64,000 bases of DNA from an uncultured bacterium (GCA_964523645.1 CAZGAW010000001.1:3305-67304); one strand, 5' to 3'; positions 37,181-48,025 are shown, counted from the stretch's first letter. The notes: generated from the letters alone by a model not told the origin. Program-made: numbers and translations.

Positions 37181-37774
37181 TTAGGGTAAATGGCTCCCGC
37201 TGCCGGTCTGGGACCAGAAATCTTCGGCGATCTGTTGGTGTTTCTGATGCAGCCAAAAATGAATTCGTCTTAGAATTCGAGGCAATCCTTTTTGCGGCAA
37301 GTTTTCCGCTTCCCAACTTGCCATTTGCCTCCGTAGGGAAACATCAATTGGGTTTTCAACCGCAATATCTACTTGATGGCAGGCTTGTATTAGTTTACGG
37401 TCATCTGTTGCAAGGATGTTAGCATTATGAGTGCGCGTTGCTTGCACCAAAACTGCATCGGTGATGTCAATTTCTAAGGTGTCGGCAATCTGCATCGCAG
37501 CGAGGGTTATCGGCAAATCTACCTCAATAATTTCTATAGGTCCTGCGGAAAATTGGGAAAGTTGTTGTGAGATAAGGTTGGCATCTACAGCATAAACCTT
37601 TGTGAGAACCGCCTTTGCTTCAAGCAGTGTAAGCGTTGTCGTGAACCAATTGGCGTGGTCTCGGATAAACGACTCACACGCGGCGGATGCGGGATGGTCG
37701 TCAAGCAGGGAGTAGACAATAAGCATCGCGTCTAACCCACGCGACGCGAATTGATCAGAAGATAAGATCATCAC
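37181..37774 (-). CDS. PIN-domain ribonuclease (VapC-like toxin) with a ~60-aa C-terminal extension
   Basis: LDAMLIVYSLLDD (first acidic residue) and ITDAVLVQATRTHNANILATDDRKL (C-terminal PIN motif). It overlaps the upstream AbrB-type gene by 20 nt. At 197 aa it is longer than the usual ~130 aa. Confidence 0.75.
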   Translation of the reverse strand: MMILSSDQFASRGLDAMLIVYSLLDDHPASAACESFIRDHANWFTTTLTLLEAKAVLTKVYAVDANLISQQLSQFSAGPIEIIEVDLPITLAAMQIADTLEIDITDAVLVQATRTHNANILATDDRKLIQACHQVDIAVENPIDVSLRRQMASWEAENLPQKGLPRILRRIHFWLHQKHQQIAEDFWSQTGSGSHLP

Positions 37775-37991
37775 CGCTCACCTCGGACAAGTCCAATGCT
37801 GAAGGTTTCCCTATTTTGAGCTTCTCGGCATAAATCTCGTCCCACGTCTGGGCAATGTAGGGACGGATTAGAATGCCATCGTCTACCCTCTCGATCACGA
37901 CCCCCGATTCCAATCCTAATTCTTTTACCCAGTCGAGGGGCAATTTGATTTTATGATCAGTTTCCAATGTGAGCGTTTTCATGGTATCCAC
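37755..37991 (-). CDS. AbrB/MazE/SpoVT-family antitoxin (VapB-like)
   Basis: KIKLPLDWVKELGLESGVVIERVDDGILIRP is the swapped-hairpin SpoVT/AbrB motif. It lies immediately upstream of, and overlaps, the PIN gene. Confidence 0.75.
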   Translation of the reverse strand: MDTMKTLTLETDHKIKLPLDWVKELGLESGVVIERVDDGILIRPYIAQTWDEIYAEKLKIGKPSALDLSEVSGDDLIF

Positions 37992-38186: not shown

Positions 38187-38594
38187 TCAATTGCGTATCG
38201 GGCGGTTGGGTTGTGATAGAATCAATCTTTTGTAGTTTAAACTTTTCTCACCGAAATTGATTAATAAACCGACTTCCAGTCGATATGCCTTCAAATAATT
38301 TAGGAGTTGTGCTTTGTGTACATCTTCTAATTCTGTGATAGCCTTTAATTCCACTAACACTTTGCCTGCTACTATGAAATCTGCTCTACGTGTCCCAATA
38401 CGTTTCGGAAAATCTTTATAAAAAATATCCTGCTCAATTTCACGTGCGAACTCCAAACCGACTTTTCTCATCTCAATTGCCAATGCGCGTTGATAAATTA
38501 CCTCTTGGAAACCGTTCCCGAAATACTTGTGGACTTCAAATGCTGCGCCGATGATCTTCTGGGTTATATCTTTATGTTTCAGGTTGTTGTTCAT
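38187..38594 (-). CDS. GxxExxY protein (PD-(D/E)xK-like fold family, TIGR04256-type)
   Basis: IIGAAFEVHKYFGNGFQEVIYQRALAIEM...RADFIVAGKVLVELKA...AQLLNYLKA...GLLINFG is the full hallmark pattern, including GxxExxY. Confidence 0.85.
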   Translation of the reverse strand: MNNNLKHKDITQKIIGAAFEVHKYFGNGFQEVIYQRALAIEMRKVGLEFAREIEQDIFYKDFPKRIGTRRADFIVAGKVLVELKAITELEDVHKAQLLNYLKAYRLEVGLLINFGEKSLNYKRLILSQPNRPIRN

Positions 38595-38618
38595 TTATTT
38601 CCGGTATCCTTTTATATT

Positions 38619-38859
38619 TCTGAATCGCGGATTGTCGCGGATTACCTTTTTCGTCTGAATCGCGGATTATCACGGATTACGCAGATTTCGCGGATTATAC
38701 TTTCGTACATCCCAAATTTTCTTTGAAAAATCGGCTGGAACTGTTGTTTATCTTGTTGTGTATTTCACTGGGCTAACGTTCTGCATCACAGATAACGGTG
38801 TGTAACAGAAGTTAAAATCCGTGTTAATCCGTGTCATCAGCGTAATCCGCGATTCAGAC
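38619..38859. repeat. MITE-like GCGGATTA repeat, copy B (plus an extra half-site at 38619-38646)
   Basis: Terminal inverted repeats GTCTGAATCGCGGATTAT (38653-38670) and GTAATCCGCGATTCAGAC (38842-38859) match 17/18 as reverse complements. Confidence 0.6.
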
Positions 38860-38990
38860 GTTCCCCTCCACAATCGCAATTTTCTTCTCTGTTAAGTTAT
38901 ACAATTCGGACATCAGAGTATCAATCTCATTTTCAAGTATAAGTCTCGTATTGGTTTGTGTTTTGGTGAGGGTTATATTGTATTTTCAGG
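38860..38990 (-). pseudogene. Ghost 3' end of a second Eco57I/Type IIG-like methyltransferase gene
   Basis: Translation: KYNITLTKTQTNTRLILENEIDTLMSELYNLTEKKIAIVEGNV*. The live gene tail reads AKHTDPDSDTSDLEDEIDKLVYALYNLTEDEIAIVEGRV*. Both stop inside the same GTCTGA repeat end. Confidence 0.6.
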
Positions 38991-39001
38991 GTTCTTTGTT
39001 G

Positions 39002-39178
39002 CCTGAATCACGGATTATCGCGGATTACGCAGATTTCGCGGATTATTGACTTTGGTATCATCAAGTTGTATTTTCATGTCTGCTAATATAGGGTGTTGAC
39101 GCGCCCGTAGGTTATGCCGATACGATGCTCTTAAAATCCGCGTTAATCCGTGTCATCAGCGTAATCCGCGATTCAGAC
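39002..39178. repeat. MITE-like GCGGATTA repeat, copy C (same ends, different core)
   Basis: The left end is cCTGAATCaCGGATTAT and the right end is GTAATCCGCGATTCAGAC. The stop codon of the 1196-aa gene (39173-39175) lies inside the right end. Confidence 0.55.
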
Positions 39179-42100
39179 ACGCCCCTCCACAATCGCAATC
39201 TCATCTTCCGTTAAATTATACAATGCATACACCAGTTTATCAATCTCATCTTCAAGGTCGGAGGTGTCCGAATCGGGGTCGGTGTGTTTGGCATCAAAAA
39301 TCTGCTCAACTAAGGTGATAAAAGACTGTTTTTGCGAAGCAGGAATCCTGACGACAGGCAGTTTCTCTAAAGCGTGTTTGTTATACTGATACCCTTTTGC
39401 GCCGAGAACAGTACCACCACAGTACCGTTTATAAGCAAATGTCATCAATGTGGAACTTAGCAATCCCACCAGGATTTTTAAATCGCTCCCTGTAATCATA
39501 AAACAAGTTTTATCTAAAAAAAACTCCCCGCTGTCATAGAAAAAGTTTGCAGAATGGGTTGTTTCAGGATAAACGATCTTTTTATTATCAAATTCTGAAT
39601 AGTAAGCACAAGCCCTGAGATTCCACCAATTTACACCTTGGTCGTCTCTATCAAATAGTCCTTTACCTCTTGTTCTTATTTTCCCTGATTCCATCTGTTT
39701 TCCTACGGCCTCAAGGTGATTGTAGATGGCAGGATACTTTTCTGAAATATCAAGATCATAACCAGTGGCGAGTATATAAAATCCCGATTGCTGGACATGG
39801 TAGCGTTTGACATCTCGTCCGCGCAGAAGCGGTTTGATGATTTCAGCAGATTTTGAGTCTTGCGCTATGAGTTGTTCGCGCTTTGCCTCGTCTATGATGA
39901 ATGCTTCATTACAACCTGTTACAATTCCACGATAGATTTTTATATCCCAGTCTTTAAGGGGAACACCGATGTTCTCTATTTGCCGTTTCAAGTTAAGTTC
40001 ACGGGATGAGAGTATTGCCCACGGTTCACCTATATCGGGTGTTTCCATAGTTGCGCCATGGTCAATCAGATATTGAGCAATATTGCCTGTTTGTCTGTCA
40101 AAGTCCGCACTGATAGATACACCGCTGAAGGTATCAGAAACATCAGTGACAGTATTTTGGAATAGCAGAATATTCGTGTCTACTGCCGCATCAAACACAT
40201 CCGGTCCCATATCCAGCAATTGAATCGGTTGGGTGTGTTGAATAAAATAATCTCTCAACTTTTTTCCATACCCAGCGCGCATCCATTTGTTAGAAGTAAT
40301 AAAGCAGACATGTCCATTATTTTTTGAAAGTTTATGCGCTTTTTCATAGAACAAACAGTAAATATCGCCTGTGCGAACGAAGGTATCAAAACCTTTATCT
40401 TGATAGAGTTTTCCGAGCCTCCCACCGTCCTTTTGTAGTTGAATATAAGGCGGATTGCCAATCACTACATCAAATCCTTCTGTGACTCCGAACATCCATT
40501 CCGAGTCAAACCAATCGGCAGTGGCGTTTTGGTCGTAGGGATCCCAACAGGCAATCCTTTCAGCATCAGTGTCGGACATGCCGAAGTGCTGTAGTTCGGT
40601 TGCTAATTCTGCTCGCAACTCTTCGTCCTTAAGCTTGCATGCGCGTTTGCGTTGGCGAGTGGTGGCGTGGAAATGTTGTTCGCGATTGTCGCGCAGTGCC
40701 TGTTCCAAATCTCGCGCTGTGTTGCTCGTCAACGTTCCTTGTGCCTTGAGACCTATGAGTGTGTTTGCTGCAATAAACCGCGTCTCCAAATTCGGTAACG
40801 GTTTGATACCGAAATTCGCTGTGTGCTGCGCCGGTGCCTGCTCAATTGCGAGGGATATGAAAAAGCGGAGTTTAGCGATTTGGCACGCCACGGGTTGGAT
40901 GTCTACACCGAAGATGCTGTTTTGAATCAGGTATAACTTGCGTCCGAAGTCCGAATCTCGGTAACGCTTGAAGGTCTCATCAATTTCAACGAGTTCTTCA
41001 CGGCGTGCCTCGTCATCCTGCGTATCAAAAGCGATTTCAGCGCGTTGGACCGCGCGTTCCTTCTGTAATTGTTCCCATCGGGTGTTATCTGGGTCAAGCC
41101 GCCGCAGCGCAAGCGTGAGTTTGTGGAGCATCCCCACAGGGAACGCCCCAGAACCGACAGCGGGATCCAGTATCTTCAGTTCAGAAATTGCTCGGACGAT
41201 TCCATCCGTCTCGGCATCGTCAAACCATTCATTGGCATCGTCAAAGGCTTGTGCATAGTCGAGGAGGTAGTGTAACCGCTCATCCCAGAGTTTCGCGTCG
41301 CCATCGGTTGGGTCGCATTTTTGGGACAACGTAGCGACTAACGCCTCTTCCACCATATAGTCGACAATCGCGCGTGGGGTATAGTAGGAACCCGTCTGTT
41401 TGCGTACGGTTGCACCGGTTTCTGGGTTGTAGGCGGCGAGTAGATTTTCAAACACCCTACCGAGCAGTTCAGGATCCAACGCGACTTCCTGCTCTATCGG
41501 TGTGTTCTCTTCAACGGTGAATTTGTAATGCTCAAGTAGCGGGATCAATCCTTGCTGTGCATCAAAAAAGAGGCGGTTCGGGATGGATAACTTATGGTAC
41601 TGATTATCAGAAAAGCAGTCGATTCGGTAACTCTCATTACCTGTCGCTTCCCAACTATCCAGACAATCGAACAACCCACCGTTGATGAAGGGGGTTTTGC
41701 CGAACAGTTCCAATAGTTTATCAGGATCGCCCATCTGATCTTTGTAGCGGTAGCGTGAGAAATCCCGATTTGTAGCGTAGCCGACAGTGCTAAACTTTCG
41801 CTTGTCTATCTCGGTGTTTAGTGTAGCGAAAAAGAGGTTTTGTAGGACGGCACGGTAATAGGCATCGCCGTTATCAAAGTCAGTCTCTTTGAGTAGGTTT
41901 TGGATTTGGGCTTTGTTGAACAACGCATCTGCTACCAACCCTTTTTCCTTGATAAACCAGATAAAGAGTAGGCGCGTGATGAGTCGTATCACATGCTCTT
42001 CCGGTTTTATGACACGGTTTTCGTCTGTAGGGAACGTTGCTGTCTCTACTGCCCATTCATACCACGCGAAGAGTTTCCGATAGAATTGCTTGTTGAGTGC

Positions 42101-42763
42101 TTCGGTATCGAGTTTAGCGAGCCATGCTGCGAGTAATCCGTCGAAGTTTTTCGGTTTTTTGTTGGCATCCATCCAGTTCGCGCATGCTTCCAATGAGAGT
42201 TCGGAGAGGATGTCGAGATGTGCGCGGTGCGGATTGTTGAGGCGGATGTCTTTGATGAGCGTGACCTGTCCTAACACATCACGAGTCTCGTCTGTTTTGT
42301 GTGGACGGCGATCGGTAAACCCTATCGTCAGTCGATTTCCAGCGCGGAATAAGACGACGGTGGGTGCTAAGAATCGCTTGTTGATCTCTCGTGTAAATTC
42401 AGCGTATCTGGTACGGGAGTAGGTGTTATCTTTTAGTACAACTGCACAGAACAGGAAGCTGTCGGTATTTGCCTTGTCGAAAGCGTCTGCCTCGAAAAGT
42501 TGCTGCTGGATATCGTCAGCGACTTCATCGCTTGTGAATTGGAAAATGAGTTGCACGGATTCAGCGTTGTTGCGGAATTCCTGTTCAGTTTTGGTGTTTG
42601 GAGTCACGGGTGGGAATTCTTGAAAAAAGTCGTGGACGGTGCCGGAGAGTTCAAGTATGCGTTCACTACGATAGCCTATCGTTGCTAAGAGGTCTTTCGA
42701 TTTTTCTAAGAAGTCGCCGATGGGGATTGCTGCTAAGGCGGATTTGATTGCTGCTTTGTTCAT
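39173..42763 (-). CDS. Gamma-class N6-adenine DNA methyltransferase with a TaqI/Eco57I-type C-terminal specificity domain (Type IIG/PglX-like architecture), 1196 aa
   Basis: NGGLFD (aa 361-366); TGSYYTP (motif X, aa 457-463, near nt 41375-41395); ILDPAVGSGAF (motif I, near nt 41141-41173); VIGNPPYI (motif IV, near nt 40445-40459); a TRD-like region WWNLRACAYYSEFDNKKIVY; and a tail LVYALYNLTEDEIAIVEG. The N-terminal ~250 aa are unassigned. Confidence 0.9.
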   Translation of the reverse strand: MNKAAIKSALAAIPIGDFLEKSKDLLATIGYRSERILELSGTVHDFFQEFPPVTPNTKTEQEFRNNAESVQLIFQFTSDEVADDIQQQLFEADAFDKANTDSFLFCAVVLKDNTYSRTRYAEFTREINKRFLAPTVVLFRAGNRLTIGFTDRRPHKTDETRDVLGQVTLIKDIRLNNPHRAHLDILSELSLEACANWMDANKKPKNFDGLLAAWLAKLDTEALNKQFYRKLFAWYEWAVETATFPTDENRVIKPEEHVIRLITRLLFIWFIKEKGLVADALFNKAQIQNLLKETDFDNGDAYYRAVLQNLFFATLNTEIDKRKFSTVGYATNRDFSRYRYKDQMGDPDKLLELFGKTPFINGGLFDCLDSWEATGNESYRIDCFSDNQYHKLSIPNRLFFDAQQGLIPLLEHYKFTVEENTPIEQEVALDPELLGRVFENLLAAYNPETGATVRKQTGSYYTPRAIVDYMVEEALVATLSQKCDPTDGDAKLWDERLHYLLDYAQAFDDANEWFDDAETDGIVRAISELKILDPAVGSGAFPVGMLHKLTLALRRLDPDNTRWEQLQKERAVQRAEIAFDTQDDEARREELVEIDETFKRYRDSDFGRKLYLIQNSIFGVDIQPVACQIAKLRFFISLAIEQAPAQHTANFGIKPLPNLETRFIAANTLIGLKAQGTLTSNTARDLEQALRDNREQHFHATTRQRKRACKLKDEELRAELATELQHFGMSDTDAERIACWDPYDQNATADWFDSEWMFGVTEGFDVVIGNPPYIQLQKDGGRLGKLYQDKGFDTFVRTGDIYCLFYEKAHKLSKNNGHVCFITSNKWMRAGYGKKLRDYFIQHTQPIQLLDMGPDVFDAAVDTNILLFQNTVTDVSDTFSGVSISADFDRQTGNIAQYLIDHGATMETPDIGEPWAILSSRELNLKRQIENIGVPLKDWDIKIYRGIVTGCNEAFIIDEAKREQLIAQDSKSAEIIKPLLRGRDVKRYHVQQSGFYILATGYDLDISEKYPAIYNHLEAVGKQMESGKIRTRGKGLFDRDDQGVNWWNLRACAYYSEFDNKKIVYPETTHSANFFYDSGEFFLDKTCFMITGSDLKILVGLLSSTLMTFAYKRYCGGTVLGAKGYQYNKHALEKLPVVRIPASQKQSFITLVEQIFDAKHTDPDSDTSDLEDEIDKLVYALYNLTEDEIAIVEGRV

Positions 42764-42802
42764 GTGCTATCTGATTTCTTTTCTGAAACCTACACAATCC
42801 AA

Positions 42803-43018
42803 CTATGAAAATAGATGACTCATAAGATGTCGGAGTTGATGCAAAAACCTATTAATAGGTTTGTGTGAATTATCGGAAACCTCATCAGTATCTTTTACTT
42901 CATCCGGTAATTCTGAACGTAAGGCTTCCCACCGCTCTTGTGCGAGCGTCGAGACTTCTTCCGATATTCCGCGTTCCTTAAGATAATCTTCAAAGTTACT
43001 ACTGCGATGCTTATTCAT
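42803..43018 (-). CDS. Small hypothetical protein (71 aa) between the HigA gene and the methyltransferase gene
   Basis: MNKHRSSNFEDYLKERGISEEVSTLAQERWEALRSEL resembles the short N-terminal helices of some antitoxin or controller-like proteins. I cannot name a family. Confidence 0.4.
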   Translation of the reverse strand: MNKHRSSNFEDYLKERGISEEVSTLAQERWEALRSELPDEVKDTDEVSDNSHKPINRFLHQLRHLMSHLFS

Positions 43019-43029
43019 GCTGTTCGTAA

Positions 43030-43443
43030 TTATCGTTCCTCTGTTGAAACGTGGTGTTCATCAAGTTTCGGATTGGAGGTTGCTAACTCTGGTGAGGCTA
43101 CTGGAGAATCTTCAGTAGTATCTTCAAGATGTAGATTTGTAGTTGACAATGGGGCAGATAGTTGGCATCCAAGCGCGTTAAGAACCGTCCTAAGCGTGTC
43201 AACCTTTGGTGTTTTCGTACTATCTAACACTTCCGATAGGAGGTGTGGTTCAGTGTCTATTTTCTTGGCGAGTTCAGAAATTCCGTCCTGTGCTTCAACG
43301 ACATACTGAAGGGCCAACTGAACTGTCGCGATATTCCCATGGATATGATATTCTTCTATAACGGCATCAAGAAAACCACTTACATCACCCTGTTCTTTAA
43401 GTTGTTCTACAAGGAATGCGTCCCATGTTCCATAAATTTTCAT
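43030..43443 (-). CDS. higA: HigA-family addiction-module antidote protein (HTH)
   Basis: The pattern FLDAVIEEYHIHGNIATVQLALQYVVEAQ.GISELAKK....PHLLSEVL....TPKVDTLRTVLNALG matches TIGR02684-type antidotes. It overlaps the toxin gene by 4 nt. Confidence 0.8.
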   Translation of the reverse strand: MKIYGTWDAFLVEQLKEQGDVSGFLDAVIEEYHIHGNIATVQLALQYVVEAQDGISELAKKIDTEPHLLSEVLDSTKTPKVDTLRTVLNALGCQLSAPLSTTNLHLEDTTEDSPVASPELATSNPKLDEHHVSTEER

Positions 43444-43781
43444 TGTTTATGCCTCTCTTTGTATTCTTTCCAATAATTTTTTGCGCGCTCAATATCCCGT
43501 CTCTGCGAGGACTTATCGCCCCCACAGAGGAGCAGAACAATTGCGTTATCTACTTCACCATAATAGATACGATAGCCTGGTCCGAAGTCAAGTCGTAGTT
43601 CCCGAACCCCACCACCTACAGATCTATGGTCGCCAAGATTGCCAGTTCTAACAGATGTTAAACGTGCTTGAATCCGTCGTCGTATGCTTGGGTCCCGAAT
43701 TGAAAGGAACCATCTTGTAAAAGGTTCGTGACCGTTTGGAATCTGGTAAAAATTTATTGTCCGCGGATGTGCATTACGCAT
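43440..43781 (-). CDS. higB: RelE/ParE-superfamily toxin (HigB-like addiction-module killer protein)
   Basis: EPFTRWFLSIRDPSIRRRIQARL.....GNLGDHRSVGGGVRELRLDFGPGYRIYYGEVDNAIVLLLCGGDKSSQ..DI..A matches the TIGR02683 pattern. Confidence 0.8.
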   Translation of the reverse strand: MRNAHPRTINFYQIPNGHEPFTRWFLSIRDPSIRRRIQARLTSVRTGNLGDHRSVGGGVRELRLDFGPGYRIYYGEVDNAIVLLLCGGDKSSQRRDIERAKNYWKEYKERHKQ

Positions 43782-43968
43782 TGATGATCTTTCGTCTACC
43801 TATAATCGATAAGCGGCTACTCAAAATTGAAATATGGTAGATTTTACAATTACTTAGACTCCGTAAAGAGACGAGGTTACCAGAGGAAACACCCAAGCAA
43901 AAACACTTCGCCAGCGGCAGTGGAGCGCGCTAATGTTTAAATATAATATCATGCCCCAATATAAAAAG

Positions 43969-46900
43969 TCAAGATTGTGGTGTTGTGATGATTAGCCACG
44001 TTACCAGTTCAAAATCGCTGGAATCCTTAGGGGCTTCGGAAGCAACTGGCAGTTTGAAACCGCGGGTGCCGCTTCTCCCGATACTTTTGGATTGCGTCTT
44101 TTGATGGGATCGTGTGATGTGGGCGATAACGGCATTCAGCAATTTGTTGTAGGTTTCCATGTACTTGCCGTGTTGGGTCTCTTGGTCGAATTGGAGACAC
44201 AATTCTGACAATTCATCACTTTTACCGATAGCACAGGTTTCAAACAGGTCCAGCACTTGCTTAGCGTTCGCACACCCATAACGGATGTCGCCGTTTTTAC
44301 GGATGTAGACGGTATAATAGGGGTAGATAGGACTCGGTGTCTTTTTCTCAATATCCGTCGTGGCGTTGCGTTGCTGGAGGAAGAAGATGACACCGGTTTC
44401 TGTCGGACTGTTTTCGTTGGTCGTGACGGCATAAGCCCCTTTCGGTGTGGCTTCTAATTCGGCTCTATTTCTTTCGAGATACTTTAGCAACTGTGCAAAG
44501 AAATAATCAAACGTAAAATCGCTCATGACAACGCCATCAGAGAGATCGTCGAGGTCTAAAACATCTTCACGGAGTTGTTTCAACTGTTCGTCCCGAAAAT
44601 TGAGTTCCATCTGTGCTTGTTCATAGGTAAACTCGTTCAATGGGTCGTCATCACCACTGGCGGCTGTATCGGCGAGTGCCATACGGGATTCTACACGGCT
44701 TTGTAAACGGAGGTAAACCTCCATGTCTTCGGTGGGCCAGTAGTTAATCATTTTCACCGTTGCGTTACGGCTCCCGATTCGGTCGATACGTCCAAAACGT
44801 TGGATGATACGGACGGGATTCCAGTGGATGTCGTAGTTCAGCACGGTATCGCAGTCCTGAAGGTTCTGCCCTTCTGAGATGCAATCTGTAGCGATGAGTA
44901 CGTCTATTTCGTCAGCGGCGCTGTTTTTCTGAGTCCGTGCCTTTGGCGCGAAATTGTTTAAGGTGACATTGAATTTGTTTTGTGTGTCGTTTCCTGACAC
45001 CATTTCCACCTTCAGTTTTAATTCTGCTGCGAGGTCTGATAGGTTTTCATAGAGGTAGTCGGCTGTATCTTTAAAGGTTGTGAAAACGAGTACCTTGCGA
45101 TTGATTTTCCCGTCTTTGTCGGTCGTTGGGTTTTGTGCCTTATTCCTGATATGCGCTTTGATTGCCTTGAGTTTGCCGTCCCTTTCGGGCGTAATGGCTT
45201 TGACGTTATCCCACGCCGCGGTCAATGTCTGTTTGTCCTTGATGAGATCTTTTTTCCAACGGATGCAATCCAATTCGCGAAGATGATACGGGTTGCGTGC
45301 TCGGTTTACCAAAAACTCCTCATCGTCTTCGTCATCATCGGGGAGAACGTCCGCTTCCGCGTCCTGTGTACGCGGGTTTTGCTCATATCGGTCAATCTTC
45401 TCGAGCATATCATCAATTTTGCCGATGGTGCGTTCAAGTGTTTTCGAGAGCGAGTGTGCGGAACTTTCCAAACGTTTGAGGAAGTTGGTCTGCATCATGC
45501 CGATAAGGAATCGCTCGCGGTCTGCTTGGTTGAAACGGAATTTCTGTTTCTCATCTGCTAACCGTTGTTTTGCTGCGCTGCTAATGACATAACTGGACGG
45601 CTGATAGATGGAGAGTGTGAATTCGGCTATCTGGTCTGCCAGTGCCTTATAAGAGAGTTCACCTGTCAAGTCGGTGGGTGGATGGCAATTTTCCGGTTTC
45701 TGTGGTGTCGGAAACTCGCCGATTCTCACCATTTCTTCGGCGTAGAAGGTCTTAATATGTCTTCGGGAACGGGCAATAGAGATGCCACCGAGCAATTGGA
45801 AGAACTCGGCACCGAGTGTTTCCAGCAACTTCGCTTTGTCTTTTTTCCCGTTCTCACCGCCTGTCTCTTCCCATGTCTTGAATTCCTTTTGCGCCTGTCG
45901 CAGCAGTGAACCGATATTACCGATGCCTAAACTTTCTCTGAAGACATCCTCACGCTTTTCGGTCATGAGATAAATCTGATTACGGAGGTCAATGAGCGAT
46001 GTGTTCACGGGTGTCGCCGACAGCATCAGGACCTTTGTTTTTGTGCCTTCTTTGATAACTTCCTCCAGGAGCCGCGTATAGCGACTGTGGCGGACGAAGG
46101 TGCCGTCAGCATCACGCGTCGGTTTCGTGTCGTTGCGAAAATTGTGCGATTCGTCAATCACGACCATATCGAAGTTGCGCCAATTGAAGTTTTCCAAATC
46201 GCCACTATAGCGGGAGAGGTCGGTATGCCATCGCACGGTGTAGCCGAACTTGTCATCGAGGAACGGATTGGTGTCTTGCGAGTTATATGCGGGATAGCGT
46301 GCCCAATTGTCGTGCAGTTTTTTGGGACACAAGACCAACACGCGTTCATTACGCAGTTCAAAGAACTTGATGACCGCGAGTGCAGTGTAGGTTTTTCCTA
46401 ACCCCACGCTATCCGCTAAGATACAGCCGTTGTGCCGTAATAGACGGGCAATCACACTTTTTACGCCCTCTTTCTGAAATTCATACAACGTTTCCCATAT
46501 TTGGGTGTCATACAGATGCGTATCTTCAAGGGTTTGGTCGTTGGTTTTTCGGGTTTCGATCTCGTCTCGGAAGAGTTCGTATAGCGTTTTATAATAGATG
46601 CGTTCTGGGGCGTGATCTTTTCCGATCTGTCCTAATGTAGCGAGGACTTTCTCCTTGACATCTTCAACGAGTTTATCGTCGCTCCAGATTTCGTCAAACC
46701 ACGCTTTTAGATCCTGACGGTCGCGGTTGCTATCCACTTCCAAATTGAGTTCGATGTTGTTGCTATCCTGCGTTAACCCTAAGCCGCGCATGGTAAAGTT
46801 TGAACTACCCATAATCGCCTTTTCAATACCGTTATTGGCGATATGATACATTTTCCCGTGTATCAGATTTGATTCGCGGGTTGTGCGGATTTCCACCTTC

Positions 46901-47232
46901 TCTTGTATCCATTTGGCACACGCTTTGGCAATCGGTTTCTGGCGGAGTTGCTGGTTGAGTGCTAAGCCTGTATCCGTTATGTCAAACGCTTTTTTATCTG
47001 AGTTATTCGGATCCATACGTTTGACAAAATCGGGGTCACCAAAAAGAAAACGGAGCTCCTCTATTTCGTTGAGGGCGTGTTGCATCTTTTCGTAGGCATA
47101 GATGGTGAAGTAGGCGGATACAATGGAGAGTGCGGAACCGTTCTGAATTTCCTGCTGTAAAAAATCGTGAACTGTTTCACGAAGCAGGTTGTCTCGGATG
47201 CCGGATTTTAGAGATGCGTTTTTATTTGACAT
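43969..47232 (-). CDS. Fusion of an N-terminal PLD-like (HKD) nuclease domain and an SNF2-family SF2 helicase/translocase, 1087 aa
   Basis: LIHGKMYHI...GSSNFT (HxK..GSxN, aa 123-147, near nt 46790-46866); ILADSVGLGKT (motif I, near nt 46390-46425); VVIDESHNFRN (motif II, near nt 46129-46161); MLSATPVNTSLIDL (III); LIATDCISEGQNLQ (V); QRFGRIDRIGS (VI, near nt 44770-44802). The C-terminal ~260 aa are unassigned. Confidence 0.9.
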   Translation of the reverse strand: MSNKNASLKSGIRDNLLRETVHDFLQQEIQNGSALSIVSAYFTIYAYEKMQHALNEIEELRFLFGDPDFVKRMDPNNSDKKAFDITDTGLALNQQLRQKPIAKACAKWIQEKVEIRTTRESNLIHGKMYHIANNGIEKAIMGSSNFTMRGLGLTQDSNNIELNLEVDSNRDRQDLKAWFDEIWSDDKLVEDVKEKVLATLGQIGKDHAPERIYYKTLYELFRDEIETRKTNDQTLEDTHLYDTQIWETLYEFQKEGVKSVIARLLRHNGCILADSVGLGKTYTALAVIKFFELRNERVLVLCPKKLHDNWARYPAYNSQDTNPFLDDKFGYTVRWHTDLSRYSGDLENFNWRNFDMVVIDESHNFRNDTKPTRDADGTFVRHSRYTRLLEEVIKEGTKTKVLMLSATPVNTSLIDLRNQIYLMTEKREDVFRESLGIGNIGSLLRQAQKEFKTWEETGGENGKKDKAKLLETLGAEFFQLLGGISIARSRRHIKTFYAEEMVRIGEFPTPQKPENCHPPTDLTGELSYKALADQIAEFTLSIYQPSSYVISSAAKQRLADEKQKFRFNQADRERFLIGMMQTNFLKRLESSAHSLSKTLERTIGKIDDMLEKIDRYEQNPRTQDAEADVLPDDDEDDEEFLVNRARNPYHLRELDCIRWKKDLIKDKQTLTAAWDNVKAITPERDGKLKAIKAHIRNKAQNPTTDKDGKINRKVLVFTTFKDTADYLYENLSDLAAELKLKVEMVSGNDTQNKFNVTLNNFAPKARTQKNSAADEIDVLIATDCISEGQNLQDCDTVLNYDIHWNPVRIIQRFGRIDRIGSRNATVKMINYWPTEDMEVYLRLQSRVESRMALADTAASGDDDPLNEFTYEQAQMELNFRDEQLKQLREDVLDLDDLSDGVVMSDFTFDYFFAQLLKYLERNRAELEATPKGAYAVTTNENSPTETGVIFFLQQRNATTDIEKKTPSPIYPYYTVYIRKNGDIRYGCANAKQVLDLFETCAIGKSDELSELCLQFDQETQHGKYMETYNKLLNAVIAHITRSHQKTQSKSIGRSGTRGFKLPVASEAPKDSSDFELVTWLIITTPQS

Positions 47233-47284: not shown

Positions 47285-47902
47285 CTAATCAGGAAATGTG
47301 ACGCGTTCGTAGATTTCCTGCAAAGGGAGTTCGCATTGGATGGCGGTGAGTGGCAAAACATCCTCAAGTTCTTGGAAATCGGTGAAAATCCAGTCCTTCC
47401 CGGGAACGGATGCAGCCCCGTGTTTTTCTTGGCAGCGATAGTGTTCAACAAGCACCTTGTTTTGGGCAACGAGGACGTATTCTTGTAATGATGCGAGTTG
47501 TCGGTAGTGGGCGAATTTTTCGCGTCGATCATACACTTCAGTCGAAGGTGAGAGCACTTCTACCAGGATAATGGGGTTGAGAAGTGTGTCGAAGACATCA
47601 TCTTCAAAGCGCGGCTCTTCGCAAACGACAACGACATCTGGGTAGAAGTAGGAGGTTGTCGTAGGTGTGCTCACGCGCATCTCGTTGGCATAGGTTTCAC
47701 ATCTGCTGCCTCTTAATAAAGTGCGGAACTCACCAAATATATTCCCTGTAATGAGATTATGGGCGCGGCTTGCCCCGGACATCGCGATTAACTCGCCGTT
47801 TATGTACTCATGCCTGATTATTTCAGCGTCTGGAAGAAATTTGCGTTCAAAAGCGATGTATTCCGCGGCGGTAAGGCGTGTATGTACTGCAGGGGTTGCC
47901 AT
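47285..47902 (-). CDS. Uma2-family (DUF820) PD-(D/E)xK endonuclease
   Basis: LTAAEYIAFER...HEYINGELIAMSGASRAHN...PDVVVV...ILVEVLSPST..YDRREKF..Y is the hallmark pattern. I chose the start MATPAVHT because GGAGG lies 6 nt upstream. Confidence 0.85.
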   Translation of the reverse strand: MATPAVHTRLTAAEYIAFERKFLPDAEIIRHEYINGELIAMSGASRAHNLITGNIFGEFRTLLRGSRCETYANEMRVSTPTTTSYFYPDVVVVCEEPRFEDDVFDTLLNPIILVEVLSPSTEVYDRREKFAHYRQLASLQEYVLVAQNKVLVEHYRCQEKHGAASVPGKDWIFTDFQELEDVLPLTAIQCELPLQEIYERVTFPD

Positions 47903-48025
47903 GATGTCCTCCAGTAGTTTGTTGATAATTTCCATTATAGCGTAACGCCGAGAGACTGTCAAGGGTAATAGAGGTATTCACATAGCCATTTAGTCTTCGG
48001 TTTTCAATCCGTTTTGTGCTGGGTG

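Follow-up and report, generated by a model that had tools for sequence, protein, structure and literature searches.

MANTIS (BR type 2, Gao_RL) is the closest functional analogue of the locus described here. Its effector, MtsD, joins an N-terminal phospholipase D (PLD) domain with a single HKD motif to an SF2/SNF2-type ATPase, and acts after methylase-directed recognition (PMC12839542; bioRxiv 10.64898/2026.09.23.753747). MtsD is a dimeric effector downstream of the methylase (bioRxiv 10.64898/2026.09.23.753747). The specificity of MANTIS is set by an N6-adenine methylase, its logic is restriction-like and directed against unmethylated DNA, and it requires the DUF499 AAA+ ATPase MtsA and the DUF3780 protein MtsB. 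Type IIG enzymes of the MmeI/Eco57I kind carry their own N-terminal nuclease, a spacer, a gamma-class methylase and a target-recognition domain (TRD) collinearly in one polypeptide, and are ATP-free. Type ISP enzymes (LlaGI/LlaBIII) are also single polypeptides, which contain an Mrr-type PD-(D/E)xK nuclease, a RecA-type SF2 double-strand DNA translocase, a coupler domain, a gamma-class methylase and a TRD. A 64,000-nucleotide stretch of DNA from an uncultured bacterium (GCA_964523645.1, CAZGAW010000001.1:3305-67304), referred to in its entirety as the window, encodes a PLD-SNF2 protein, here called the helicase, and a large adenine methylase with a DUF4391-like N-terminus. The pair probably constitutes a self-contained two-gene, ATP-dependent, restriction-modification-like defence system in which the DUF4391-like domain docks the PLD-SNF2 nuclease. 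An earlier note on this DNA had proposed Type ISP and DISARM as the nearest kin of the pair, but functionally the nearest are MtsD and the Type IIG methylases.

The helicase gene and its domains are positioned as follows.

43969..47232, minus strand: gene 1, PLD(HKD)-nuclease::SNF2-type ATPase of 1087 amino acids (open reading frame (ORF) translation, Pfam, PADLOC)
46663..47145, minus strand: PLD/HKD nuclease domain, residues ~30-190, with a single HxK...GSxN motif (PLDc_2 and RE_NgoFVII matches)
44653..46497, minus strand: SNF2 motor core, residues ~246-860, consisting of RecA1, a long helical insert and RecA2 (SNF2-rel_dom, ResIII and Helicase_C matches)
43972..44652, minus strand: family-specific C-terminal region, residues 861-1087 (matched only by the C-terminal part of C3a139, 5.4e-08)

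The 1087-residue ORF exists as the earlier note described it, and every motif quoted there is present in the translation: IHGKMYHI...GSSNFT (H125/K127, N145), GLGKT (residues 278-281), DESH (360-363), SAT (405-407) and QRFGRIDRIGS (811-821). The N-terminus of the protein displays the HxK(x)4D...GSxN signature of the PLD/HKD superfamily and is a predicted nuclease. Residues 87-183 match PLDc_2 (2.5e-10, 40.8 bits with a cut-off of 27), and the PLD domain also matches RE_NgoFVII (28.0 bits, cut-off 23.8). The motor has the RecA1 and RecA2 domains of an SNF2 ATPase together with their motifs, and is matched by SNF2-rel_dom (43.6 bits, cut-off 24.9), ResIII and, at residues 709-820, Helicase_C (7e-18, 65.3 bits, cut-off 23.5). 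The best sequence matches in the PDB are the Snf2-family motors CHD1L, Snf2 and RapA, all matches being to Snf2-family motors or other SF2 helicases; neither SauUSI nor NgoAVII/CglI is among them. Pfam and PDB searches with residues 861-1087 returned no match. The top PADLOC match of the whole protein is PDLC01075 'C3a139 HKD+Snf2' (4.7e-99). In an alignment of 70 homologues with 43-95% identity, conservation reaches at least 95% in the HGK and GSSNFT motifs and in helicase motifs I, II, III and VI; within the PLD domain, H125, G126, K127 and G142-T147 are invariant or conserved to at least 95%. The PLD catalytic residues, the loss of which the earlier note had named as grounds for abandoning its proposal, are therefore kept across the family. 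With a single HKD motif per protein, two copies would have to come together to form an active site, as in BfiI, SauUSI and MtsD.

The methylase gene lies on the same strand.

39173..42763, minus strand: gene 2, DUF4391-like::helical spacer::gamma-class N6-adenine methylase::TRD, 1196 amino acids (translation, Pfam, PADLOC)
42119..42763, minus strand: N-terminal domain, residues 1-215, DUF4391-like (PF14335 matches in homologues, hhalign)
41429..42118, minus strand: helical spacer, residues 216-445, MmeI_hel-like (PF20465, matched by 46 of 60 homologues)
40154..41428, minus strand: gamma-class adenine methylase core, residues 446-870, with motifs X (GSYYTP), I (DPAVGSGAF) and IV (NPPY)
39176..40153, minus strand: TRD, residues 871-1196, of the TaqI_C type and variable (TaqI_C match)

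This ORF, too, was correctly predicted, and its translation contains GSYYTP, DPAVGSGAF and NPPY. The motif order X-I-IV, the NPPY sequence and the S-adenosylmethionine motif, all of which are conserved, identify it as a gamma-class N6-adenine methylase. The Pfam families N6_Mtase (residues 431-490) and Eco57I (residues 615-857, 2.3e-37) match the protein above their cut-offs, and TaqI_C matches residues 977-1137 (7e-10). The closest sequence matches in the PDB are CamA, BseCI and BrxX/PglX. The REase_MTase_IIG models of PADLOC match at 1e-125, covering only the spacer, methylase and TRD, and the spacer aligns to positions ~207-371 of the Type IIG model PDLC03601 (1.2e-13). Conservation drops sharply beyond about residue 870; the TRD can be aligned in only 33 of 68 homologues, with a mean identity of 36%. 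All three catalytic modules of the pair, represented by HGK/GSSNFT, helicase motifs I, II, III and VI, and NPPY, are under purifying selection.

The two genes are conserved as neighbours. A forward scan with the helicase alignment against one genome per species yielded more than 590 loci, 80 of which were kept. They cover Poribacteria, Binatia, Latescibacterota, Chloroflexota, Cyanobacteriota, Verrucomicrobiota, Planctomycetota, Bacteroidota, Proteobacteria and others; nearest to the window are genomes of Poribacteria, which have the same gluconolactonase/methyltransferase neighbours, so the window probably comes from a sponge-associated member of this group. In 72 of the 74 loci with sufficient flanking sequence, the helicase gene is immediately followed, on its own strand, by a methylase homologue that includes the N-terminal domain; in the remaining two, the homologue lies upstream, inside the 10-kb flank. 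The gap between the genes has a median length of 118 bp, and 35 of 68 gaps are at most 130 bp long or the genes overlap. In a reverse scan of metagenome contigs, with methylase residues 1-215 as the query, a helicase precedes the methylase in 19 of 20 informative loci. Conserved adjacency, which the earlier note had put forward as a test, thus holds across phyla and in both search directions. Clustering of the flanking ORFs within 10 kb revealed no third constant gene, the commonest other family being present in 14 of 106 loci.

The family is widespread. The helicase search gave at least 8000 matches, and the N-terminal domain of the methylase is carried by 1223 clusters at 50% identity. Being very common, it is less exotic than the earlier note implied. 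On phages and plasmids only a distant form of the helicase (~37% identity) was found, apart from one plasmid of Planktothrix with a truncated, 711-residue gene for the fused N-terminal-domain methylase. Some related loci are extended: an SMC_N/AAA_15/AAA_23-type ATPase of ~550 residues, absent from the window, overlaps the methylase stop codon in ~10 of 106 loci. Such SMC/AAA_15-type ATPases follow the methylase in L023, L034, L037, L040, L048, L051, L054, L097, L104 and L108, and could serve as an optional third component or as a back-up effector. In L097 (13748-17920), the region downstream of the methylase encodes a 1391-residue protein in which more than 20 TPR repeats are fused to a TaqI_C-type specificity domain, followed by an SMC-like ATPase.

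The distant form of the helicase is encoded by 130 plasmids; it is ~37% identical to the window protein over the full length and has the same best PADLOC model, 'C3a139 HKD+Snf2'. In Acinetobacter, Methylotuvimicrobium, Bacillus cereus and Enterococcus hirae, and thus in both Proteobacteria and Firmicutes, the plasmid helicase gene is directly followed by a free DUF4391 gene, and then by Type III Mod and Type III Res.

NZ_CP051210.1, NC_016108.1, AP023006.1 and NZ_MK798156.1: plasmid cassette loci L081-L084

The cassette resembles the window pair in having a helicase of the same family and a DUF4391 module placed directly after the helicase and before the methylase. In contrast to the window pair, its DUF4391 is a free protein of 225-250 residues, its methylase is of the beta class (Type III Mod), and it also encodes a Res helicase-nuclease. 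No free DUF4391 gene was found within the two-gene clade. Judged from the sequences, DUF4391 is a constant companion of the PLD-SNF2 family, free beside Type III Mod and fused in the two-gene form. The searchable literature holds no name or description of the four-gene plasmid cassette.

Residues 1-215 of the methylase are treated here as a remote homologue of DUF4391, below the level of Pfam membership. PF14335 (DUF4391) matches 25 of 60 homologous N-termini below the gathering score (best E 6.6e-5), and the window methylase itself with 13.6 bits, the cut-off being 29.9. When an alignment of 75 diverse N-termini was compared with standalone DUF4391 by hhalign, the probability was 91.2% and the E-value 1e-6 over 100 columns. 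None of the PADLOC 2.0 models matches residues 1-215 or the free DUF4391. An AlphaFold2 model of residues 1-445 has a predicted local distance difference test score (pLDDT) of ~90 over the N-terminal domain, and a Foldseek search of the PDB with this domain gave no match at E<0.01. A profile search with the N-terminal domain against 1.84 billion representative proteins recovered, among its best 150 matches, fused or fragmentary members of the family throughout.

The DUF4391-like domain occupies the site where Type IIG enzymes have their nuclease. A PD-(D/E)xK nuclease in this position was considered and rejected on account of the unconserved triad, the lack of coverage by Type IIG models and the absence of a fold match. 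An acidic residue, E or D, occupies position 109 in 36 of 50 homologues, the window protein having V109; K111 is kept in 18 of 50, and there is no conserved upstream aspartate.

The divergence of the helicase correlates with that of the methylase N-terminal domain (rho 0.79), the spacer (0.77) and the methylase core (0.75), and far more weakly with that of the TRD (0.47, with the TRD alignable in 33 of 68 loci). With the spacer controlled for, helicase and N-terminal domain have a partial correlation of 0.51. Two chimeric loci separate the modules. L061 combines a distant helicase (46% identity) and N-terminal domain (36%) with a close spacer (85%) and TRD (80%); conversely, L003 has a close helicase (81%) and N-terminal domain (70%) but a distant spacer (50%) and methylase core (42%). 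The N-terminal domain thus travels with the helicase, which fits the role of an interface. The guess in the earlier note that residues 1-250 of the methylase may couple the two proteins gains support, since the region is DUF4391-like and DUF4391 partners the same helicase family. It is conceivable, at somewhat less than even chances, that DUF4391 serves specifically as an adaptor through which a dimeric PLD-SNF2 motor nuclease docks onto methylases of different classes, and that the two-gene form is the minimal version of a widespread class.

The ends of the methylase gene have several further peculiarities. A 126-nucleotide direct repeat, with copies at 38812-38937 and 39131-39256 that are 86% identical and 319 nucleotides apart, duplicates the last ~84 nucleotides of the gene and 42 nucleotides downstream, leaving a remnant C-terminal tail of 27 residues; it may be the scar of an earlier exchange of the 3' end or TRD cassette. 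The intergenic region downstream of the methylase (38611-39046) contains three copies of a 53-nucleotide 'AATCCGCG'-rich repeat, which is probably a dispersed extragenic repeat of the source genome. In some relatives, an inverted partial TRD-like ORF lies ~1.2 kb downstream of the methylase TRD (L089:10523-12150, L091:12902-14310 and L093:7363-8908, and also in L006 and L014). These ORFs are bracketed by inverted repeats of 102-191 nucleotides that are 74-83% complementary, and are candidate invertible specificity cassettes; they echo the programmed inversions published for such methylases (PMC9881135). The window has no invertible TRD cassette. At the other end of the gene, L006 (13228-14628), L019 (13516-14451) and L089 (4362-6089) have a second, truncated copy of the N-terminal domain, situated between the helicase and the complete methylase, and the copy in L006 continues in frame into unrelated sequence. 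These copies may be relics of methylase replacement. The top matches of the methylase N-terminus in the protein database (P0121-P0240) are nearly all fragments of 285-780 residues rather than proteins of ~1200, which could be caused by frameshifts in long-read assemblies of metagenome-derived genomes or by an effect of search ranking; the copy on the Planktothrix plasmid is a genuine truncation.

The pair is not a complete named system, as the earlier note had held, and its scores are far under the curated NCBIfam cut-offs. The MANTIS-type model NF042964 ('phospholipD_antiphage') reaches 162 bits on the helicase against a cut-off of 1100, and the PADLOC model 'PLD_Helicase' matches it at 1.3e-28, compared with 4.7e-99 for C3a139. 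To go by these alignments, the helicase has a fold related to that of MtsD and the same architecture, but is probably not its ortholog. Whereas MANTIS depends on MtsA and MtsB, no window ORF is of fitting size or family for either and none recurs in related loci, although the DUF499 and DUF3780 models were not run on every small ORF. The methylase differs from that of MANTIS in being a 1196-residue Type IIG-like fusion with a DUF4391-like N-terminus. With the Type IIG enzymes it shares the collinear arrangement, the single TRD and the single methylase domain; however, residues 1-215 match no Type IIG model, and the nuclease is the separate PLD-SNF2 protein instead of a part of the same polypeptide. 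The pair and the Type ISP enzymes draw on the same functional set of nuclease, SF2 double-strand DNA translocase, gamma-class methylase and TRD, and likely have a common logic, with an asymmetric site, one-strand methylation and translocation-coupled cleavage. Unlike the single polypeptide of Type ISP, the window system is encoded by two ORFs 1206 bp apart and has a PLD nuclease, a motor of the SNF2 family, and a DUF4391-like domain in the place of the coupler.

DISARM class 1 (DrmA, DrmB, DrmC, DrmD, DrmMI) likewise uses a PLD nuclease, an SNF2 helicase and a large adenine methylase. However, PLD and SNF2 are fused in the window protein, and the defining DrmA/DrmB (YprA helicase and DUF1998) are absent, with no ORF in the window and no recurrent gene in the 106 related loci. 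The DrmD models NF038317 and NF038318 give 159 bits (cut-off 610) and 98 bits (cut-off 950) on the helicase, aligning only the RecA2 region, and all DrmD and DrmMI matches are partial and under cut-off. The BREX systems of types 1-6 have a PglZ phosphatase and a BrxC/PglY ATPase, for which the window contains no candidate ORF; the PglX models NF033452 and NF033451 score 82 and 69 bits on the methylase, with cut-offs of 500 and 400. SauUSI (Type IV) and NgoAVII/CglI (ATP-dependent Type II) resemble the helicase in combining a PLD nuclease with an SF2 ATPase and in the dimer implied by a single HKD motif. SauUSI differs in having its own SRA reader and targeting modified DNA, and NgoAVII/CglI in having the nuclease and helicase in two proteins and a separate C5 methylase. 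An ORF and family scan of the 64 kb agrees with the earlier note that there is no candidate for drmA/drmB, pglZ, brxC or hsdR/hsdS. The only other window ORFs of at least 686 residues encode an M16 peptidase, UvrB and a BamA-like protein, and ten additional large ORFs had no match in PADLOC.

The following mechanism is proposed. Gene 2 would have been derived from a Type IIG enzyme, the N-terminal nuclease of which was replaced by the DUF4391-like domain. Since the spacer, the gamma-class methylase and a single variable TRD are kept, the site is probably short and asymmetric, with one adenine methylated. The methylase subunit would mark host DNA by methylating one strand, as do the single-TRD Type IIG, Type ISP and PglX enzymes. 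On foreign DNA it would bind the unmethylated site, upon which the DUF4391-like domain would recruit or license the PLD-SNF2 dimer. The dimer would spend ATP on translocation along the DNA or on signalling between sites, and would finally cleave the foreign DNA. We infer a physical interaction of the two proteins, the sensing of methylation, translocation, cleavage and an antiphage function. The pair looks like an SNF2 and PglX-like module made autonomous by the addition of PLD to the motor and of the DUF4391-like domain to the methylase.

The genes might instead be independent of each other, the methylase being a self-sufficient Type IIG enzyme with a cryptic N-terminal nuclease and the helicase a stand-alone SauUSI-like (Type IV) PLD-SNF2 nuclease. 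PADLOC does call the methylase 'REase_MTase_IIG' (1e-125), position 109 is acidic, in an ExK-like context, in 36 of 50 homologues, the C-terminal domain of the helicase could read DNA, and SauUSI is a PLD-helicase able to act alone (PMC3141236). Independence is nevertheless improbable in view of the same-strand adjacency seen almost everywhere and from both search directions, often with overlapping ends. The N-terminal domain, moreover, has neither a match to a Type IIG model nor a conserved triad nor the fold of a PD-(D/E)xK nuclease; it is homologous to DUF4391, a neighbour of the same helicase family, and co-varies with the helicase in chimeric loci. A system of exclusion or epigenetic control without cleavage, in which the SNF2 motor loads or assists the methylase, or blocks replication as in BREX, and the PLD domain is regulatory or not a nuclease, is unlikely. 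It would be in line with MANTIS, the ATPases of which load the methylase and for the PLD-SF2 protein of which cleavage was not seen in vitro (bioRxiv 10.64898/2026.09.23.753747), with BREX, which restricts without evident cleavage (PMC12707154), and with the SNF2/RapA relatives that are remodellers. However, conservation of HxK...GSxN to at least 95% is what would be expected of an active phosphodiesterase, the PLD domain matches the PLD family of the NgoFVII restriction nuclease, and the PLD-SF2 protein of MANTIS is needed for restriction but dispensable for methylation.

It is highly improbable that the pair is only part of a larger named system (DISARM class 1, BREX type 3, BR/MANTIS or ARMADA) whose other genes were lost or are located elsewhere. 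Pairs of SNF2 and PglX-like proteins do occur inside DISARM-1, BREX-3, BR and ARMADA II (PMC12839542; bioRxiv 10.1101/2025.09.15.676423), and both window proteins weakly match DrmD, BrxHII, HmaA, DrmMI and PglX models. Nevertheless, every curated NCBIfam cut-off is missed widely, no ORF of the 64-kb window fits DrmA/B, PglZ, BrxC or the DUF499 ATPase, and no such gene recurs in the 10-kb flanks of the 106 related loci. The two genes have stayed together in many phyla, as a product of decay would not.

Several points weigh against the reading of the pair as a self-contained defence system with a DUF4391-like docking domain. The homology to DUF4391 is remote, and smaller alignments gave hhalign E-values of only 0.027 and 5.5e-4. 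The AlphaFold2 model of the full helicase, calculated from an alignment of 16 sequences that are 77-96% identical, has a mean pLDDT of 42 and is unusable. The locus L097 is the lone exception from the reverse scan, with a methylase but no helicase. Two genes may not always suffice, because ~10% of the loci add the SMC/AAA_15-type ATPase. The plasmid cassette contains a full Res nuclease-helicase, so the PLD-SNF2 and DUF4391 proteins may have a different, auxiliary role there. The purified PLD-SF2 effector of MANTIS has so far exhibited no nuclease activity in vitro (bioRxiv 10.64898/2026.09.23.753747), and no published experiments on methylation, cleavage, interaction or phage protection were found for this locus or its homologues.

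The spacing of ~1.2 kb between the two genes given in the earlier note is matched by the measured gap of 1206 bp, which contains three small genes.

43440-43781, minus strand: HI1419-type RelE/ParE toxin (NCBIfam TIGR02683, 1.8e-34)
43030-43443, minus strand: HI1420-type antitoxin (NCBIfam TIGR02684, 1.8e-06)
42803..43018, minus strand: ORF of 71 amino acids (ORF call; no family match in Pfam or NCBIfam)

L085-L087 contain homologues of the 71-residue ORF (59% identity) at the equivalent position. Besides the window, only the closest relative, L001, has the toxin in this gap; the antitoxin also occurs there in L021 and L085-L087. The content of the gap differs from locus to locus and includes AlbA_2/HATPase_c_4, DUF1016/YhcG, Fic, Bro-N, Uma2 and toxin-antitoxin pairs. 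Such genes are familiar passengers of restriction operons. Because other loci hold different genes in the gap, the HigBA-like pair of the window is variable cargo and not a component of the system.

Housekeeping genes border the small accessory patch to which the pair belongs: one flank encodes UvrB and M16 peptidases, the other gluconolactonase, PrmA and DnaJ.

47285-47962: Uma2-family endonuclease (ORF call; matched by the PADLOC candidate PDC-S03 at 2e-25)
47934..47962, minus strand: perfect sigma-70 consensus TTGACA-17-TATAAT upstream of Uma2 and the helicase (pattern match only)
38187-38594: GxxExxY/PDDEXK_3 gene of the accessory patch
37181-37991: PIN-domain gene and overlapping 78-residue ORF, VapBC-like, of the accessory patch

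The promoter candidate at 47934..47962 may drive Uma2 and the helicase together as an operon. It overlaps the TTG codon that automatic ORF calling took as the start of Uma2; since the Pfam match starts at residue 43, the protein itself probably begins further inside the ORF.

A PLD(cd09178)+SNF gene beside a Type II methylase gene is recorded in a table note (PMC9881135). The pair, described as unnamed in the earlier note, indeed has no name that could be found, but it had already been noticed in passing. Apart from that entry, only the related but distinct work on BR/MANTIS was found in the searchable literature, subscription-only papers, REBASE and newer releases of defence finders being outside the search. 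DUF4391 is mentioned twice in the same literature, neither time with a statement on its function. The additions made here are the link to DUF4391, the conserved two-gene core, and the placement of the pair beside MANTIS rather than DISARM or Type ISP.

Current tools either overlook the pair or, like PADLOC, mistake it for a lone Type IIG enzyme. If the proposal is correct, a restriction system of its own lies behind hundreds to thousands of neighbouring genes annotated as 'helicase-related protein' and 'Eco57I methylase domain protein', and its methylases are a large untapped set of new specificities. Although the pair embodies no new principle, it is minimal and tractable, and it comes with a specific, testable hypothesis about an orphan domain. 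With its two proteins it would serve as a model for a question left open by the four-protein MANTIS, namely how an unmethylated site is handed over from the methylase to the PLD-helicase effector. DUF4391 would gain a role in linking target recognition to a motor nuclease and, should the adaptor reading hold, the family would represent 'Type ISP in trans', built from different parts, and an unnamed class of ATP-dependent restriction systems. For the organisms that carry them, the pairs would be likely barriers to genetic manipulation, which concerns sponge symbionts, cyanobacteria, Chloroflexota and Verrucomicrobiota.

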